Source: Candidatus Midichloria mitochondrii IricVA
GTDB taxonomy: Bacteria; Pseudomonadota; Alphaproteobacteria; Rickettsiales; Midichloriaceae
Length of the DNA stretch: 32,000 nucleotides
NCBI RefSeq assembly: GCF_000219355.1
Contig: NC_015722.1
Coordinates: forward strand, 810,001 to 842,000
Reading direction: 5' to 3'
Shown: piece by piece, positions 16,029 to 29,913 of the stretch
How the letters are laid out: the number at the start of each line of letters is the position of its first letter
Numbering within the stretch: the stretch's first letter is position 1
Made by a program: the position numbers and the translations under genes
The notes under the pieces: model-generated
What the model was told of the DNA's origin: nothing
Seen by the model: the letters and a program-made list of their open reading frames with translations, nothing else
Database searches by the model: none

Positions 16029-16159
16029 AATTCCCCAAAATTACGTCTCATCAACCAAGACTAACACGCCCATTCTACATGTGACGACAACTAATTTCAA
16101 CTCGATAATAAATACATTCTATGATTTTTCTTACATTTTTACCATTTTTTGTATTTAAA

Positions 16160-16187
16160 TTGACTTTCTGAAAGATTCTTGTAAAAT
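16160..16187 (+). promoter_or_regulatory. Sigma70-like promoter for ssrA
   Basis: TTGACT (16160-16165), a 16-nt spacer, then TAAAAT (16182-16187). This would place the transcription start near 16193-16195, at the beginning of the tmRNA acceptor piece. Confidence 0.45.
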
Positions 16188-16190
16188 GAG

Positions 16191-16485
16191 GGGGCTCAAT
16201 AGGCTATGGTGATAAACGTAACTTATAATGGGTATTTTGGACTCGGGGGCGGTACCCGGCACCTCCACCTGCGAAGTTTATGGGGGGTGAGCTAGCTTCG
16301 ACAGATATTAAAAAAAGTTACTTTTACTCGGTAAGATACCGCCGTAATGGATCAAAAAAAGTAAATGCAAACAATAAGTTTGTACCTGCTAATAGCGACT
16401 TTGTGCCAGCTCTTCAAGCAGCATAACATGAGCTAGTTAGCGCGGTTTGGGCTTGCCGGGCAACAGAAAAGCCCACAAATTTTTG
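16191..16485 (+). ncRNA. ssrA: Two-piece (circularly permuted) tmRNA: acceptor piece to 16269, about 13-nt spacer, coding piece from about 16283
   Basis: The acceptor piece ends ..GGAC-TCGGG-GGCGGTA-CCCGG-CACCTCC-ACC (16269). The coding piece starts GGGGGTG at 16283 and pairs with CACCTCC to give G3:U70, the Ala identity pair. This is followed by GCTTCGACAG (compare the conserved GGAUUCGACGGG). The tag frame at 16367-16426 is GCA AAC AAT AAG.. = ANNKFVPANSDFVPALQAA*, preceded by the A-rich GTAAAT. A terminator hairpin closes the gene. The 5' boundary is approximate. Confidence 0.8.
16448..16484 (+). terminator. Rho-independent terminator of ssrA
   Basis: The stem TGGGCTT (16448-16454) pairs with AAGCCCA (16469-16475) around a 14-nt loop. 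It is followed by ACAAA and a T5 run (16480-16484). Confidence 0.55.
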
Positions 16486-16492
16486 TGTGAGT

Positions 16493-16873
16493 ATGAATAT
16501 GACTTACGATCAGCGGAACATATTTGCAAAAATATTAAGGAATGAAGCTCCTTGTAGAAAAGTTTATGAAGATCAATATACTCTAGCTTTTCATGATTTA
16601 CATCCATCGGCACCGGTACATGTACTTGTCATTCCAAAAGGAGAATTTATTTCTTTTAGTCATTTTATTAGTACCGCTAATCATGATTTTATGGTTGGCT
16701 TTTTTATTTCTGTCCAAAAAGTTATTGAGATATTAAAAATTGAAAATTCTGGCTATCGAATGATATCCAATTGTGGGGCTGATGGCATGCAAGCAGTACC
16801 GCACTTTCATATTCACATTTTGGGTAAAAAACGGTTGGGTGTGTTGGTTGCTGGCGACAATTTTCATACTTAA
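16493..16873 (+). CDS. HIT-family (HinT-like) nucleotide hydrolase
   Basis: It has the histidine triad HFHIHILG and the N-terminus NIFAKILRNE.PC.KVYED. I prefer the ATG at 16493 to the tracked GTG at 16487, which sits inside the terminator tail. Confidence 0.88.
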   Translation: MNMTYDQRNIFAKILRNEAPCRKVYEDQYTLAFHDLHPSAPVHVLVIPKGEFISFSHFISTANHDFMVGFFISVQKVIEILKIENSGYRMISNCGADGMQAVPHFHIHILGKKRLGVLVAGDNFHT

Positions 16874-16907: not shown

Positions 16908-17246
16908 ATTTTTGCCGCGCGCTGTTGATGGCATCACGGCTGGTGATTATGCAGGCATGTCTGTTGTAGCGTCTGGAGATATGAATGGTGATAGCAAAAG
17001 TGATATCATTATTGGTGCTCCTGGTGCTTGATATACTAGATGGAGATCTGGGTAAAAGCCGTAGCGCAGGTCGCGCATATGTGGTGTTTGGCAGATCTTC
17101 TTTTACTAGCGCCTCAGACATACTTTCAATGGTAAAAATTACATTGTCATGGGGGCCCCCACCCCCCTCTTGGCAGAACCGATGCAGGACAAGTTTACAT
17201 AGTTCACGCAGAAGCATTATATGAATATTGGTATTATGAATATTGA
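16908..17246 (+). pseudogene. Integrin-alpha-type FG-GAP repeat protein fragment (stops and frameshifts)
   Basis: Across frames it reads AVDGITAGDYAGMSVVASGDMNGDSKSDIIIGAPGA*, then ..GDLGKSRSAGRAYVVFGRSSF, then ..IVMGAP..GRTDAGQVYIVH. These are consecutive G.SV..(A/S)GD.NGD..D.IIGAP....G.AYVVFG units. There is no start codon, and the fragment is wedged between the HIT stop and the dprA remnant. Confidence 0.65.
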
Positions 17247-17253
17247 TCTGGTA

Positions 17254-18129
17254 TCATGGAATCCTGACTATATTATTTCCATATATCCTTGAAACCCTGC
17301 CAGCCAGTTCTAATTCTAAAATAATAAAATTAACTAGCATAATTTACGCGTATCGGATCATAGGGTATAAGCTCTAATACTTTTTCTCTGTATTTACTTA
17401 GCTCAGCGTCTGAAGGGGTGTTCGTTCTTAGTTGCAGAGCTTTTCGTAGTGTGAAATTTGGCATCCTTATCTTTGAATGCTAACGGGTTACATTTATTTG
17501 ATTCTAATTCCTCTATAACATCTTCTGCTTTTTCAACTAGAATTGCGCCGTTTTTTATTAATGCATTAGTACCAGAGCAGCATATATCAAACGAAGAACC
17601 GGGTACCGCAAATACTTCTCGAGCTTGTTCTTGCGGGGTAATTTTAAAGTGCCGGAGCTTTTTGCCGCTTCTATGGACAACTACACCTGAAGATAGGCCA
17701 GATATTATTCTATTTCTTTGAGGAAAATGTTGCGGAACAGCTCCGGCTCCAAATTTTTGAGTGCTGCTGCGTCAATTCCGCGTGCTAATCCAAAAATAAT
17801 AGTGTACACCCAGCGCTACTTAAATTAGAAGCCAGCTCTTCAGCTAATGTAAGTAACCCTTCAAATGCACATATAATCGAAGTATTATAACTTTCACATT
17901 GGGAAATCTCTAATTCGATTGCTGCATCGCTTGGGATTTCTAGGTTCTTTTTGCTGCCACCTGCTCTTGCCATAGAATTCAAATTTGAAAGCGCAAGTTC
18001 GCTTGAACCAAAAATATTGATTAATTCAAAAAACGTTTTTGCTGAAACTCCAGGAGTACGAGCCAGTTTTAGCCATGACACAAGCTTTAACTGCTCTTCA
18101 TAAACACTCTCAAAAAACTTTGACATCAC
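17254..18129 (-). pseudogene. dprA: DNA-processing protein DprA/Smf, multiply frameshifted and shortened
   Basis: The N-terminal ORF (18129-17785) contains LKLARTPGVSAKTFFELINIFGSSELAL. Downstream, in other frames, are RNRIISGLSSGVVV, IEAAKSSGTL, EQAREVFAVPGSSFD..SGTNALIKNGAILVEKAEDVIEELE, and the C-terminal LVNFIILELELAGRVSRIYGNNIVRIP* (stop at 17256-17254). The total span is about 290 codons, against the 370 or more that I recall as typical. Confidence 0.75.
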
Positions 18130-18223: not shown

Positions 18224-19815
18224 ATGCAAGATTCATTATTTATTCAAGAAGAGTTAAACAAAAATAAATCCTATAAGGTATTGGCACGAAAGTATCGACC
18301 TAAGTCTTTTAACGAGTTGATTGGTCAAGATATTTTAGTTAGGACTTTAACTAATGCTATAAAAATGAATAGGTTCCCTCATGCTATATTATTAACTGGG
18401 ATTAGAGGGACGGGGAAGACTACCACAGCAAGAATTATCACGAAAATAATGAATTGCCAAAGTATTGATCTGCAAAATGAAAGTCTTAGCCCCTGCGAAA
18501 GGTGTGATAGTTGTGTTAGTATTGCGTCTTCTCAACATACAGATATTTTGGAGATGGACGCTGCAAGTCATACTAGTGTTAATGATGTAAGGGTTATAAT
18601 AGAAAATGCCTATTACGCTCCTGTATCATCTCGTTTTAGAGCATATATAATAGATGAAGTACATATGCTTTCAACAAGCGCATTCAATGCTTTATTGAAA
18701 ACTTTAGAGGAGCCGCCGCAGCATTTAATTTTTATATTTGCAACCACTGAAATTCAGAAGATTCCGCTAACAATTCTATCGCGCTGCCAAAGATTTGATT
18801 TACGACGCGTTTCAACAGAAGTTTTAAAAAGCCATTATCTAAATATTCTAAAACAAGAGAATATCAGTATAGAGAATGAAGCAATTGATCTTATAGTAAA
18901 AGCAGCTGATGGATCAGTAAGAGATGGGTTGTCTATTTTAGATCAAGCTATTGCTTTGAGCCATGGGACTATAAAGGGTGAGTTAATAAGGGATATGCTC
19001 TGTATAAATAATAAGGTACAGATAATTGAACTGTTCATGTATTTGATTGCAGGAGATGTAGAAGAGTTATTAAATTTAGTTGCTAACCTTTACAATTCTG
19101 GCGGTGATCCAGTAATGATTGCTAATCAATTATTAGAATTGGTTTATGAAATATCTAAATTTAAAACTCTAGGTGACGCTAATTATATTACAGGCTTTAG
19201 TCAGTCGCAGTTAGAAAAAATACAATTACTACAAATATCTTTTTTAGCACGAAGTTGGCAAATGTTGCTGAAAGGCCTTGAGGAGGTTAAAACCTCTATA
19301 ATGCCTTTGCAAGCTTTAGAAATGGTATTAATTAGATTATGCTACTTAAATGCTTCCATAACGCCTGAAGAAATTTTGAGCAAATTAGAGAACAGTAAGC
19401 TAGATGACGATAAGCCGAGTGAAAGCAAACCAGCTCCAGTTCAGGATACTGGACCTAGCCCGAAAGTTAATGATGTAGACAACCTGTTAACTATCTTATA
19501 CGAAAAGAACGAATTAGATCTTTATTATATGCTACATAATGAAGTTGCTATAGTAGAATTTGAGGAAGGGATGATGAAGATTAATCCACTAAATTATTCG
19601 CCTCATGGTTTGGTGAATATGCTGAAAAAGAAGCTAAAAGAGACTACAAAAATAGAGTGGCATATTGAGTTGGTTAAAGATAAGGCTTTAACGGTAGGGT
19701 TGCAAAATAAACAACAACAAAAGGAAAAAAAGAAGCTATTGCCAGCAATGATATGGTAAAGGAAGTTTTGAATCACTTTACAGGAAGCAAGATAATTGAT
19801 ATTAAAGTTCGTTAA
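18224..19815 (+). CDS. dnaX: DNA polymerase III subunit tau (DnaX); the conserved last 27 codons are reachable only by a -1 shift at 19726-19732
   Basis: AAA+ clamp-loader motifs are present: GIRGTGKTT (Walker A), a Zn module (CQS..C..C..C), IIDEVHML and SRCQRF. The zero frame stops at 19759. The -1 frame over 19732-19815 encodes EAIASNDMVKEVLNHFTGSKIIDIKVR*. Confidence 0.9.
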
Positions 19816-19836: not shown

Positions 19837-20142
19837 ATGAAACACATGATGAAACAAGCACAGATGCTTCAAAAAAAAATGAATGATATGCAACAACAAC
19901 TTGAAAATGTAGAGGTTATAGGATCAGCAGGAGGAGGGCTTGTTACTTGTGTGACAACTGCAAAAGTAGTGATCAAAAAGGTTAACATAAATAAAGATTT
20001 AATGAATCCTGAAGAAGTTGAGGTTCTTGAAGATTTAATATGTGCAGCGCTCAGTGATGCTAGAAGAAAAGCAGACGAACTTGTTAATCAAAGTATGAGC
20101 AGTTTAGGGCTGCCTCCGGATATGATGAAAATGATGTCTTAG
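19837..20142 (+). CDS. ybaB: YbaB/EbfC nucleoid-associated protein
   Basis: 101 aa. It has MMKQAQMLQKKM..Q..L, G.AGGGLV and a typical acidic/hydrophobic tail. The RBS AGAGGAG lies upstream, and the gene follows dnaX in the conserved order. Confidence 0.9.
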   Translation: MKHMMKQAQMLQKKMNDMQQQLENVEVIGSAGGGLVTCVTTAKVVIKKVNINKDLMNPEEVEVLEDLICAALSDARRKADELVNQSMSSLGLPPDMMKMMS

Positions 20143-20145
20143 CTA

Positions 20146-21413
20146 ATGCTATATTTACACTTATATAGACTTGTATCTCTTTTGTTATATCCAATTTGGC
20201 TTCTACTGCTTAAAAAGAGAATCAAAAAGGGGAAAGAGGAAGAGGGACGGTACCTAGAGAAATTAGCAGTGGTATCGGTTAAAAAAACCTGAAGGAAATT
20301 TAATGTGGTTTCATGCGGTTAGTGTGGGCGAGATCAGTATTATAACACCCCTTATTAAGCTTTATCATAAGAAATTTCCTACAGAGAATTTTTTTGATTA
20401 CCACCACTACCGTTACTGCAGCAGAGGTTTTCAAAAAAGCTAAGATACCGAATTCGATACATCAGTATTTGCCAATAGATGTACCCTTCATTGTTGAAAA
20501 ATTTTTTAAGCATTGGAAACCTAATTTGTCGATTTTTACTGAGTCAGAAATTTGGCCTAATCTGTTGTTAACGGCAAAGAAGCACAGTCCTGTGTTGTTG
20601 ATTAACGGAAGACTTTCGGATCAATCGTTTTCTAAGTGGAAGAATATAAAATCTTTAATGACTAGTTTGCTCAAAGTTTATGATTTAGTGTTACCTGGTA
20701 CTTCCATAGATTTAAAAAGATTTAGCTTTTTTTATCAAGATAATATTCACTATCTTGGAAATTTGAAAAATGCAGCTCCTCCGATGTCTTATAATTCTTC
20801 TTTACTCAAAAAATTAAAGGAAAATATAGGAAACCGTAAGGTAGTAGTATATGCAAGTACTCATAGAGGCGAAGAAGAGATAATTATAAATGTGCACGAA
20901 CAGTTAAAGCAACATTATAAAGATCTTTTAACTGTTATAGTTCCTAGGCATATAGACAGAACGGCCGAGATACTTAGGATGACCGCTCGTCATAAGCTTA
21001 ATGTTTCGTTGTATACTGACAATAATCATATTATTAATAGTAAAGATGAAGTATATATCGGTAATGTGGTAGGGGAGCTAGGCACCTTTTATCGGTTAGC
21101 GGAAATAGCATTTGTTGGCGGTTCCTTAGTTGAAGGAGGAGGGCATAACATACTAGAGCCGGGTAAACTTGGGCTAGCTGTACTAGTTGGACCGCATACT
21201 TTTAATTTTACTGAAATTGTACAGAGTTTTCTAAAAGAAGGAGCAGTAATCATTGTTTCTAATCAGAAGGAACTTTATGAGAGAATTAAAAGTTTGTTTA
21301 ATGATAATGGATACCTCAAGAAAGTGCAGAAAAACGCTTTGAAGGTCTCAAAAAGTCAAGACGAAGTGATGAATTTATATATCGAAACTATTAATAAATT
21401 TCTTATTTCGTAA
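20146..21413 (+). pseudogene. waaA: 3-deoxy-D-manno-octulosonic acid (Kdo) transferase WaaA/KdtA, split by two +1 frameshifts at homopolymers
   Basis: Frame 1 (20146-20292) gives MLYLHLYRLVSLLLYPIWLLLLKKRIKKGKEEEGRYLEKL.., stopping after an A7 run (20281-20287). Frame 2 gives PEGNLMWFHAVSVGEISIITPLIKLYHKKFPTENF, up to a T7 run (20389-20395). Frame 3 is the tracked ORF at 20394-21413 (LITTTTVTAAEVF..ESEIWPNLL..). The joined sequence is collinear with the E. coli WaaA N-terminus as I recall it (HSVSVGE..TTMTPTG..ETELWPNL). Confidence 0.8.
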
Positions 21414-21426
21414 TTCATGCGGGACA

Positions 21427-22281
21427 TCACGGCAGTCTAGCCAAGTTTTTGATAAGAGAACTTCTTGCTTCATTGTAAACTCTTTTTTCACTGTTTGCTA
21501 TAATTCCTGTGTTACTGCCATATATGAAAGGGTAGTTATAATAACCATGTCCAATCATTTCAGTTTTAAAAACTGGTACAGATTTATTTTCTAGCACTAA
21601 CGCTATTCTATTTAAAGCATCTATTACTTTGTCTCCGCATTGATGAAAAGCCCCAAAAACTACTGCTTTTAAGCTATCTAGTTTTTTTGCTTGGTATAGA
21701 TGTTCAAGCATTCTATCAATTCTGTATGGTGGTTCAGCTACATCTTCTATAATTAAAATTTTATCTGCGGTACCAATTTCCCAATTTGTACCAATGCTAG
21801 TCTGCAAAATAGAAAGATTACCTCCAGTAATTTTTCCAACAATTTCTTTGGAAGTTCTTGCATTATTTTTTCCATCCATTGAGTCAGATATTTGATTATA
21901 GTTTAATCCATGAATTACTGTATTCCAACCAAGCTTTTGGTATAAAAACAAGCTAATAGCGGTAGCATCACTAAATCCAACAAAAATTTTTGTTGGGCGT
22001 TGCTTTAATTCTTCTACTAATTCATCTAATTTGGTAAAGATCCGAGCTGAGCCGTAGCCGCCTCTCAAACACCATATAACCTGAAAAGTAGTATCATTAA
22101 CTGTTTCAACTAAGTTATTCAATCGGTATTCACTGGTGTTTGCACAAAAAAGGGTAGGAGCAAAAATATCTTTAGCTATATAGCTTTTATACCCATGCTT
22201 TCCATAACCTTCAAAGAGCCAGTTAAGCTTTTTTGGTTCTCTAAATAACTGCTGAGAGCAACCACTCTTATAAACATACAC
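21427..22281 (-). CDS. ldcA: LD-carboxypeptidase (peptidase S66, LdcA/MccF family)
   Basis: 284 aa with LRGGYGSARI, the nucleophile context VGFSDATA, IIEDVAEPPYRIDRML and GHG. The GTG start and the first 10 or so residues are uncertain: an upstream ATG (MPMIRV) is in another frame. Confidence 0.8.
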   Translation of the reverse strand: MYVYKSGCSQQLFREPKKLNWLFEGYGKHGYKSYIAKDIFAPTLFCANTSEYRLNNLVETVNDTTFQVIWCLRGGYGSARIFTKLDELVEELKQRPTKIFVGFSDATAISLFLYQKLGWNTVIHGLNYNQISDSMDGKNNARTSKEIVGKITGGNLSILQTSIGTNWEIGTADKILIIEDVAEPPYRIDRMLEHLYQAKKLDSLKAVVFGAFHQCGDKVIDALNRIALVLENKSVPVFKTEMIGHGYYNYPFIYGSNTGIIANSEKRVYNEARSSLIKNLARLP

Positions 22282-26405: not shown

Positions 26406-26807
26406 TTATATAAAGCTGTGCACGAAACGCATTATAGCGGATTTTATTTCATATGTAGCCCTATGAATTATAACGTGCTGTCCTTTATGTAAGAATCCCA
26501 AAAGGTTTGGTAGACTATTCTTGCTTCTACGCCGGTAAACTTGAGATCCAACTCTTCTTCCCAGGCTTTTAAGTGGCTCAAATAACAACCTACAGTCCCG
26601 GGCTCCGGATAATGAGCAATGAAATTTCTATAAGATTTATAATTTATAATCCACCACTGAGTCGATATACTCTTTAGGCAATTCTTTGCCATCAACCGCG
26701 GAAATTCTAGTTACAGGAAAACCCACAACTTCTATTAATGGCAGAACTTTTCGCAACCTACCTTGAGCTCTATCTAAATTGACTAGGTAAATTCCAACAG
26801 AACCTTT
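26406..26807 (-). pseudogene. Family-25 glycosyltransferase (LOS/LPS beta-1,4-galactosyltransferase-like) remnant, frameshifted and without a start
   Basis: The minus strand first gives IYLVNLDRAQGRLRKVLPLIEVVGFPVTRISAVDGKELPKEY..*, matching the GT25 N-terminus pattern (I.L.rs..R.......l......AvdG..L). A second frame gives YPEPGTVGCYLSHLKAWEE (GEIGC.LSH). A third frame follows (ORF 26588-26406). About 135 codons remain, against roughly 250 expected. Confidence 0.6.
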
Positions 26808-27109: not shown

Positions 27110-27126
27110 CCCCCCCCCCAAAAAAA
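27110..27126. repeat. C10-A7 double homopolymer tract
   Basis: Read directly: C at 27110-27119 followed by A at 27120-27126. It lies inside a 590-bp G-poor non-coding spacer upstream of petC. Confidence 0.9.
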
Positions 27127-28382: not shown

Positions 28383-29684
28383 ATGCAAGTCTTGTTAAAC
28401 ACCTTCAGATTATATTCACTCATTTTTACCATAGTAACAGAAGGTTTGCTTATTGATTTTATCAGATTAAAGCGTATTAAAACTCCAGAAGGAAAAAAAA
28501 TACTCCTCGACAAAATAAGCAAGAAAATTGTCTCCATCTTACCAAAATTTGGTCCAGCCTTTATAAAAACTGGCCAATTCTTAGCTACAAGGCCAGATAT
28601 AGTGGGAGATATTGTAAGTAGAAACTTAGAGAAACTTCAAGATAGCCTTCCAACTTGCGATTTTAGTCAAATAAATGCAATTCTTTCTAAATCTATTGCA
28701 ATCAATGAATTTAAATATATAGACCATGTTGCAGTAGCAGCAGCTTCTATAGCGCAAGTTCATAAAGCTGAAACCATAAATAATGAGGTAGTCGCAATCA
28801 AGGTGCTGAAGCCAGGTATCGAGGCAAAATTTAAGAGTAATTTATCTTTGCTTAGATTTGTAGGAAGGTTAACTCAAAAGATCTTTAATGTAAAAAGGTT
28901 AAAAATTGAGGAAGTTATTTCAAGAATAGAAAAAACCTCATTACTTGAAATGGACCTGCGGATAGAGGCCGCGTCTGCTGACAAATTAAGGGAAAATTTA
29001 ATTCATGATGAAAATGTTTACGTCCCCAAAATATTTTGGAAATATACCACTAATAACATTCTTGTGTTAGAGTGGATCGACGGTATACCATTGTATGACC
29101 GTGAGCGTCTCCTGTCTGCAGGCTTTAATATAGAAAGTATTGTTAAAAAATTTGCTGTTACTTTCTTCAATCAAGCTTATAGGGACGGGTTTTTCCATGC
29201 TGATCTACATCCAGGCAACGTTTTAGTTAACGCCAATGAAGATATAATATTTCTAGACTTTGGTATAATGGGGCACCTTGACCATATGAATAAATTATTC
29301 ATTGCTGAAATTCTCAAAAGTTTTTTGGAGCGCAATTATGATTTAGTTGCTAAATTGCATCTAGAGGCAGGATATTTTCCAAAATCCGAATCCATCAATG
29401 TATTTGCACTCAGTTGTCGTAGTATTGGTGAAACAGTTTTAAATAAGCCCCCAAATCAAGTTTCGATATCAGCTCTGTTGAAGCAGCTATTTGAAACCGC
29501 GAAAAACTTTAATATGGAAATCCAAGCTCCTTTACTTTTATTACAAAAAACCATGATGACAGTTGAAGGCATTAGTATTTACTTGGATGATCAGACTAAT
29601 ATTTGGTTATTGATCAAACCGTGGATAAAGAAATGGGCTAAATCAAATCTTGGAATTAGAGGGCGCTTGCTCCAAAAATACTAA
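28383..29684 (+). CDS. ubiB: ubiquinone biosynthesis protein kinase UbiB (ABC1/ADCK family)
   Basis: It contains GPAFIKTGQFLATRPD, AAASIAQVHKA, EMDLRIEA and FHADLHPGN. I prefer the ATG at 28383, 4 nt after the petC stop, to the tracked start at 28317, which overlaps petC by 62 nt. Confidence 0.9.
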   Translation: MQVLLNTFRLYSLIFTIVTEGLLIDFIRLKRIKTPEGKKILLDKISKKIVSILPKFGPAFIKTGQFLATRPDIVGDIVSRNLEKLQDSLPTCDFSQINAILSKSIAINEFKYIDHVAVAAASIAQVHKAETINNEVVAIKVLKPGIEAKFKSNLSLLRFVGRLTQKIFNVKRLKIEEVISRIEKTSLLEMDLRIEAASADKLRENLIHDENVYVPKIFWKYTTNNILVLEWIDGIPLYDRERLLSAGFNIESIVKKFAVTFFNQAYRDGFFHADLHPGNVLVNANEDIIFLDFGIMGHLDHMNKLFIAEILKSFLERNYDLVAKLHLEAGYFPKSESINVFALSCRSIGETVLNKPPNQVSISALLKQLFETAKNFNMEIQAPLLLLQKTMMTVEGISIYLDDQTNIWLLIKPWIKKWAKSNLGIRGRLLQKY

Positions 29685-29913
29685 CAATGCAGAGAATTTT
29701 GTTAAAGACATTGTGGATATAGTTTCGCTTGGAAAGAAGCACCTGATTAGATTGCAGCAGAAGCACACTAAGTCTCAAAAACTTTACTGAAAAATATTTT
29801 GACTTTTAAGATTATAAGTGCGACTTATAGTTTGAAATCCCAGTAATGCTTGTTGCGTCGCAACATAGTCTACGTTAAATTTATTAATATAGGCAAACTA
29901 AAATATTCATTTT

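Follow-up and report, generated by a model that had tools for sequence, protein, structure and literature searches.

The window, meaning the whole stretch of 32,000 nucleotides from Candidatus Midichloria mitochondrii IricVA (NC_015722.1) that was analyzed, has a GC content of 36.8% and contains the dnaX gene followed by ybaB (Table 1). The zero-frame product of dnaX is identical to the IricVA database entry AEI89165.1 / WP_013951365.1 / UniRef100_F7XWW6. The N-terminal clamp-loader ATPase module is present in this protein (TIGR02397 dnaX_nterm, 415.6 bits at a cut-off of 250; PF13177, 138 bits; PF22608; PF12169, 114 bits). The zero-frame protein ends in ..KEKKKLLPAMIW, which in a longer form reads ..QNKQQQKEKKKLLPAMIW, and its final 8 residues, KLLPAMIW, are an out-of-frame translation. 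In the -1 frame a TAA is located at 19708-19710, and thereafter the frame reads ..KGKKEAIASNDMVKEVLNHFTGSKIIDIKVR through 19815; in its longest form the same reading is TTTKGKKEAIASNDMVKEVLNHFTGSKIIDIKVR. The codons at the A run are GAA (19724-26) AAA AAG AAG CTA, and the heptamer A_AAA_AAG is placed in the X_XXY_YYZ phase relative to the ORF that starts at 18224. Joining the two frames gives a slip-fused DnaX of 530 aa with the junction peptide EKKEAIASNDMVK, the zero-frame counterpart of which is KKKLLPAMIW. The stop codon of the -1 frame is separated from the start of ybaB by 21 nt. In the initial annotation the end of the zero frame, the limits of the -1 frame and the in-phase heptamer had been described, and it had been concluded that the two frames must be joined within 19711-19756. 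Direct reading bore out all of these sequence statements, and the junction falls at the A run.

Directly upstream of dnaX lies a remnant of dprA, which is fragmented in all assemblies examined (a DprA_N part of 113 aa, with a separate 100-aa DNA_processg_A piece in some of them). This gene is a real pseudogene and not an artefact. The window also contains a tmRNA of the alphaproteobacterial two-piece (permuted) form, whose tag peptide is ANNKFVPANSDFVPALQAA (Rfam RF01849, 190.5 bits).

Table 1. Coordinates of dnaX, its neighbors and the sites of difference between the window and other M. mitochondrii assemblies
Feature	Position	Strand	Remarks
tmRNA, two-piece (permuted)	16156-16517		Rfam RF01849
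Length difference	17127-17330		segment present in the window, L006 and L007; about 150 bp missing in L008 and L009
dprA	17785-18129	-	only the DprA_N part remains as an ORF
dnaX, zero-frame ORF	18224-19759	+	511 aa; TIGR, Pfam and NCBIfam DnaX matches
A7 homopolymer, probable site of a missing base	19725-19731	+	A8 in 5 of 5 other M. mitochondrii assemblies read and in 3 other Midichloria lineages
dnaX indel	19725		window A7, others A8
Heptamer A_AAA_AAG	19726-19732	+	in phase with the zero frame
dnaX, probable true 3' end	19732-19815	+, -1 frame relative to 18224	codes for EAIASNDMVKEVLNHFTGSKIIDIKVR*, the conserved terminal part of the tau C-terminal domain PF12362 (DUF3646)
ybaB (YbaB/EbfC), conserved 3' neighbor	19837-20142	+	101 aa; identical in other assemblies
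waaA	20146-21413		421 aa elsewhere; three ORFs in the window
waaA, first extra base	20281-20287	+	window A7, A6 in four other assemblies
waaA, second extra base	20389-20395	+	window T7, others T6
Peptidase_S66 gene (LdcA-like)	21378-22281	-	two frames in the window; 301 aa in L006 and L007
Peptidase_S66 indel	21483-21488	-	window T6 (+ strand), others T5
Peptidase_S66, segment deleted in L008 and L009	21824-21947		real deletion of 124 bp
Length difference	26431-26592		window agrees with L008 and L009; L006 and L007 lack 162 bp
C/A junction between tRNA-Lys and the cytochrome c1 gene	27110-27126		window C10A7, other assemblies C9A8 or C8A8
ubiB (ABC1 family)	28383-29787		468 aa elsewhere; frame changes near the 3' end
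ubiB indel	29672-29673	+	window CC, others C

The peptide encoded in the -1 frame was compared with known DnaX families. Without this peptide, the profile PF12362 ('DNA polymerase III gamma and tau subunits C terminal') was matched over positions 2-90 of 114 with 43.5 bits. With the peptide joined, the match covered positions 2-114 of 114 and the score rose to 67.9 bits. For NF006585, the NCBIfam equivalog of alphaproteobacterial DnaX, scores of 592.7 bits without and 613.8 bits with the peptide were obtained at a cut-off of 604. Thus, a complete C-terminal domain was obtained, and the NF006585 cut-off reached, only when the -1-frame peptide was joined. The peptide also aligned with the motif V-[KQ]-E-[VI]-L-x-x-F-x-G-x-x-I-x-D-I, which is conserved in 21 relatives. 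In a profile search with the 22-sequence alignment, the matches listed were only distant Alphaproteobacteria, and they reached query residues 526-530. The likeness to the C terminus of alphaproteobacterial tau, which had initially been proposed, is real by the evidence of PF12362, NF006585 and the motif shared by the 21 relatives.

A search with the slip-fused protein of 530 aa retrieved a DnaX of M. mitochondrii (P0001, 530 aa) that differs from it in a single residue (R40K; 529/530 residues identical). In other M. mitochondrii assemblies, 14 contigs, 8 of them larger than 1 Mb, carry a contiguous gene for this protein. The DNA at the site was read in five of these other assemblies of the species (GCA_030068755.1, GCA_030068765.1, GCA_030073385.1, GCA_963853935.1 and GCA_963853985.1). 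All five have GGAAAAAAAAGAAG, that is, A8. They also share the wider context ..CAACAAAAGGAAAAAAAAGAAGCTATT.., in which A8 as opposed to the A7 of the window is the only difference around the site. Among the genomes compared, the complete ones are hybrid assemblies from Nanopore and Illumina reads (PMC12282096). At the protein level, the members P0122-P0128 of the 90% cluster, which come from several tick hosts, all end in ..EKKEAIA[SN]NDMVKEVLNHFTGSKIIDIKVR. Truncated forms in the cluster were confined to the IricVA record and two Hyalomma runs, and the Ixodes ricinus A7 allele was found in no other dataset.

The same site was then compared among lineages. The reading GAA AAA AAA GAA, an A8 run in frame, was shared by the other strains of M. 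mitochondrii, the Midichloria of Hyalomma, the P0125 lineage and CP094379 (86% identical). Two more distant relatives, both 67% identical, have GAT AAA AAA AAA GCT with an A9 run in frame (P0003) and GAC GCT AGA AGA GCT with no A run (P0004). In all six lineages compared, dnaX is a single ORF and is followed by ybaB. Because all relatives compared have a single ORF, a dnaX arrangement that requires frameshifting is not conserved. The initial annotation had named two observations that would speak against recoding. Relatives with an unbroken frame and no conserved frameshift-requiring heptamer were indeed found. An A8 run in independent reads was found for other individuals of the species but not for the IricVA DNA itself.

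To place the dnaX difference in its surroundings, positions 8224-29760 of the window (21.5 kb) were aligned with four other M. mitochondrii assemblies (L006-L009). Five 1-nt indels were private to the window, and all five are changes of homopolymer length. Only four substitutions were private to the window over the same 21.5 kb, one of them being the C10A7 versus C9A8 junction. The local rate of private indels is about 1 per 4.3 kb. A tblastn search was performed against the window with the 18 products predicted for L007, 17 of them from coding genes and one a cut DprA_N piece. The genes broken by the five indels are dnaX, waaA (twice), the Peptidase_S66 gene and ubiB, each of which is a single ORF in L007. 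Twelve of the 13 remaining coding genes were 100% identical at the protein level, and so was the DprA_N piece. In waaA (Glycos_transf_N + Glycos_transf_1) the three ORFs result from two extra bases, which probably reflect sequencing errors like the one proposed for dnaX, and in ubiB the change of frame results from the extra C. The four comparison assemblies fall into two lineages, between which there are about 10 clean SNPs, several 120-160-bp indels and almost no 1-nt indels. Two such length differences, for which the window agrees with one or the other pair of assemblies, are given in Table 1. Separately, L008 and L009 carry a real 124-bp deletion in the Peptidase_S66 gene, so that in some of the population this gene may be undergoing real decay.

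The IricVA reference was presumably sequenced with 454, as indicated by one parenthetical remark in PMC12282096. Relative to this reference, each of 11 genomes sequenced with Nanopore and Illumina showed 170-191 deletions and 92-117 insertions, or roughly 260-300 indels per genome (PMC12282096, Table 2), whereas the number of SNPs varied two-fold, from 317 to 625 (PMC12282096). Near-constant indel counts together with variable SNPs are as expected of errors private to the reference. The rate of private indels in the window agrees with these published counts, and the authors of that study mention possible '(454) sequencing artifacts' in the IricVA reference (PMC12282096).

Truncated DnaX was also obtained from the Midichloria of Hyalomma rufipes, in Logan assemblies of two runs (P0129, 511 aa, from SRR16203938; P0130 from SRR16203937). 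For the same symbiont, the runs SRR16203939 and SRR16203940 as well as two NCBI assemblies have A8 in dnaX. Compared with these four A8 sets, the contigs of the two truncated runs (L010, SRR16203938; L011, SRR16203937) show exactly three 1-nt deletions in the stretch common to all six, each in an A run: dnaX A8 to A7, ybaB A7 to A6 and waaA A5 to A4. According to PMC9323704, two ticks were sequenced with Illumina NovaSeq, Illumina NextSeq and MinION R9.4.1. The table of that paper names SRR16203935, 36, 39 and 40, and by its methods the non-enriched runs are Illumina NovaSeq (PMC9323704). Apparently, SRR16203939 and 40 are these NovaSeq runs, with one run for each tick. This leaves SRR16203937 and 38, which the paper does not assign, as the probable MinION runs. 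If this assignment holds, the same DNA gives A8 by Illumina and A7 by a platform prone to homopolymer errors. Apart from the three A-run deletions, the Logan contigs, probably MinION R9.4.1, are the same as the Illumina-derived contigs. The possibility that SRR16203937 and 38 are RNA-seq runs showing transcriptional slippage was considered and rejected, as only DNA libraries are described in PMC9323704.

In E. coli, a -1 frameshift in dnaX takes place with an efficiency of about 50% and yields gamma, and an SD-like element is located about 10 nt upstream of the shift site. The window has the same gene, the identical heptamer and the same codon phase. Programmed recoding would mean that -1 ribosomal frameshifting or transcriptional slippage at A_AAA_AAG produces full-length tau and that the zero-frame product is a shorter isoform, with a polarity that is the reverse of that in E. 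coli. The exact heptamer, in phase and in the gene of the E. coli paradigm, speaks for this reading, as do candidates for reversed-polarity dnaX frameshifting that were proposed for a few bacteria (PMC5009743); since the reversed polarity has already been proposed, the concept would not be new. However, the E. coli shift is stimulated by an upstream SD-like element and a downstream stem-loop (PMC5009743), and the window has neither at a stimulatory position. For the 83 nt downstream of the heptamer (19733-19815), the minimum free energy was -10.7 kcal/mol compared with -11.0 ± 2.5 kcal/mol for shuffled sequences (z = 0.12), and 105 of 200 shuffles folded at least as well. A downstream hairpin is thus no better than chance, in agreement with the initial annotation, in which no convincing stimulatory hairpin had been seen. 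By direct reading, no SD-like stimulator was seen upstream of the shift site at the E. coli spacing of about 10 nt, and positions 19706-19718 read ATAAACAACAACA. The sole SD-like element, AAGGA at 19721-19725, lies immediately next to the heptamer and not at that spacing. The heptamer is not unusual in this DNA, with 31 occurrences of AAAAAAG in the window compared with 24 ± 4.5 expected. Furthermore, the E. coli shift occurs after domain III, whereas the A run of the window lies at residue 503 of 530, inside PF12362 and 27 residues from the C terminus, and not at the gamma/tau boundary. With the shift placed within the last domain, the zero-frame product would not correspond to gamma. A single dnaX ORF is found on at least 15 contigs of M. 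mitochondrii and in several other lineages of Midichloria, the arrangement of the E. coli type is absent from all Midichloria relatives compared, and the A run itself is absent in P0004. With a single A8 ORF elsewhere, A9 or no run in the more distant relatives and no stimulatory structure, programmed recoding is not supported and is extremely unlikely; as a conserved mechanism, it is effectively refuted by the comparative sequence data.

A real, recent deletion in IricVA, which had been put forward as a second explanation, retains the standing of a minority possibility. It would leave the strain with a tau that lacks the last 27 conserved residues and carries 8 wrong ones, either tolerated or as a sign of incipient decay, or else a small fraction of full-length protein would be made by unprogrammed slippage ('savior indel'). 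Homopolymers are natural hotspots of 1-nt indels, AT-rich endosymbionts included; endosymbionts keep such indels, which are partly corrected by transcriptional slippage, and A_AAA_AAG is intrinsically prone to shifting for tRNA-Lys (PMC5009743). Poly(A) slippage rescues frameshifted genes in Buchnera and Blochmannia, and slippage is also described for dnaX of Thermus thermophilus (PMC5009743). Like Buchnera and Blochmannia, Midichloria is an intracellular symbiont that is AT-rich and passed on vertically, and here too the apparent indel affects a poly(A) run in a coding gene. In contrast to these systems, the run in the window comprises 7 nt and is shorter than those for which efficient slippage of bacterial RNA polymerase is documented, from about 9 nt upward (PMC5009743), and the indel is present in no other assembly of the species. 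IricVA stands for an Italian population and the complete comparison genomes are Dutch, so that a deletion private to the strain is formally possible. However, it would require that four genes, with waaA hit twice, were frameshifted within 21.5 kb in one strain that has four private substitutions over the same distance. Such a number of frameshifted genes beside only four substitutions, in an essential gene set, makes a real deletion implausible. In addition, dnaX is essential, conservation within PF12362 is highest in the segment that would be lost, and the I. ricinus A7 allele was reproduced in no other dataset. We therefore consider a real deletion unlikely. Still more improbable is the variant in which the IricVA DNA truly has A7 and enough full-length tau is made by -1 frameshifting at A_AAA_AAG or by RNA polymerase slippage, as a very recent savior indel. 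If it were true, it would be a savior indel in an essential replication gene, sustained by decoding infidelity in a tick endosymbiont.

The break in dnaX is very probably a homopolymer undercall in the IricVA reference, in which A7 was recorded for A8, and not a case of recoding. One A is taken to be missing from the reference, since in all other assemblies of the species the run is longer by one A and the gene is intact. The A8 of the other assemblies and the excess of ORF-breaking homopolymer discrepancies in the reference were observed, and from these we infer that the A7 arose in sequencing and not in the IricVA bacterium. The third explanation of the initial annotation, a homopolymer sequencing error, accordingly gives the best fit to the A8 found elsewhere, the private indels, the Hyalomma runs and the data of PMC12282096. 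The case shares several features with known homopolymer errors of 454 and Nanopore R9.4.1 sequencing: a one-base homopolymer discrepancy that is contradicted by Illumina-corrected assemblies of the species, further ORF-breaking discrepancies in the same assembly, and miscalling of the dnaX site in the probable Nanopore runs of a sister lineage. No feature that differs from such errors was found in the window.

According to the undercall explanation, one A would have been dropped from the 2011-era IricVA reference by an error of the pyrosequencing type, either in base calling or in assembly. The real dnaX would be an uninterrupted ORF of 530 codons (..GAA AAA AAA GAA GCT..) encoding a normal alphaproteobacterial tau, and neither frameshifting nor slippage would be necessary for the full-length protein. 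The poly-A run would be a chance outcome of Lys-Lys codons in a genome of 37% GC, and the in-phase A_AAA_AAG would be what remains after the loss of one A from GAA AAA AAA GAA.

The result calls for caution, as an exact and in-phase copy of a famous heptamer, in the very gene in which it is known, arises trivially when one base is dropped from GAA AAA AAA GAA. The Hyalomma data carry a related warning: systematic homopolymer undercalls are not removed by k-mer assembly and reach protein databases, where they appear as truncated 'variants' such as P0129 and P0130. The useful outcome is a correction of the reference annotation. WP_013951365.1, which is still active in RefSeq, is a truncated DnaX, and at least three neighboring genes, waaA, the Peptidase_S66 gene and ubiB, have false frameshifts in the widely used IricVA reference. 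Counts of pseudogenes, metabolic reconstructions and claims of 'gene loss' that were built on this reference are therefore inflated, and all three should be worked out anew on the more recent complete genomes. For the biology of Midichloria the weight of the finding is small, as there is no evidence of recoding in its dnaX.
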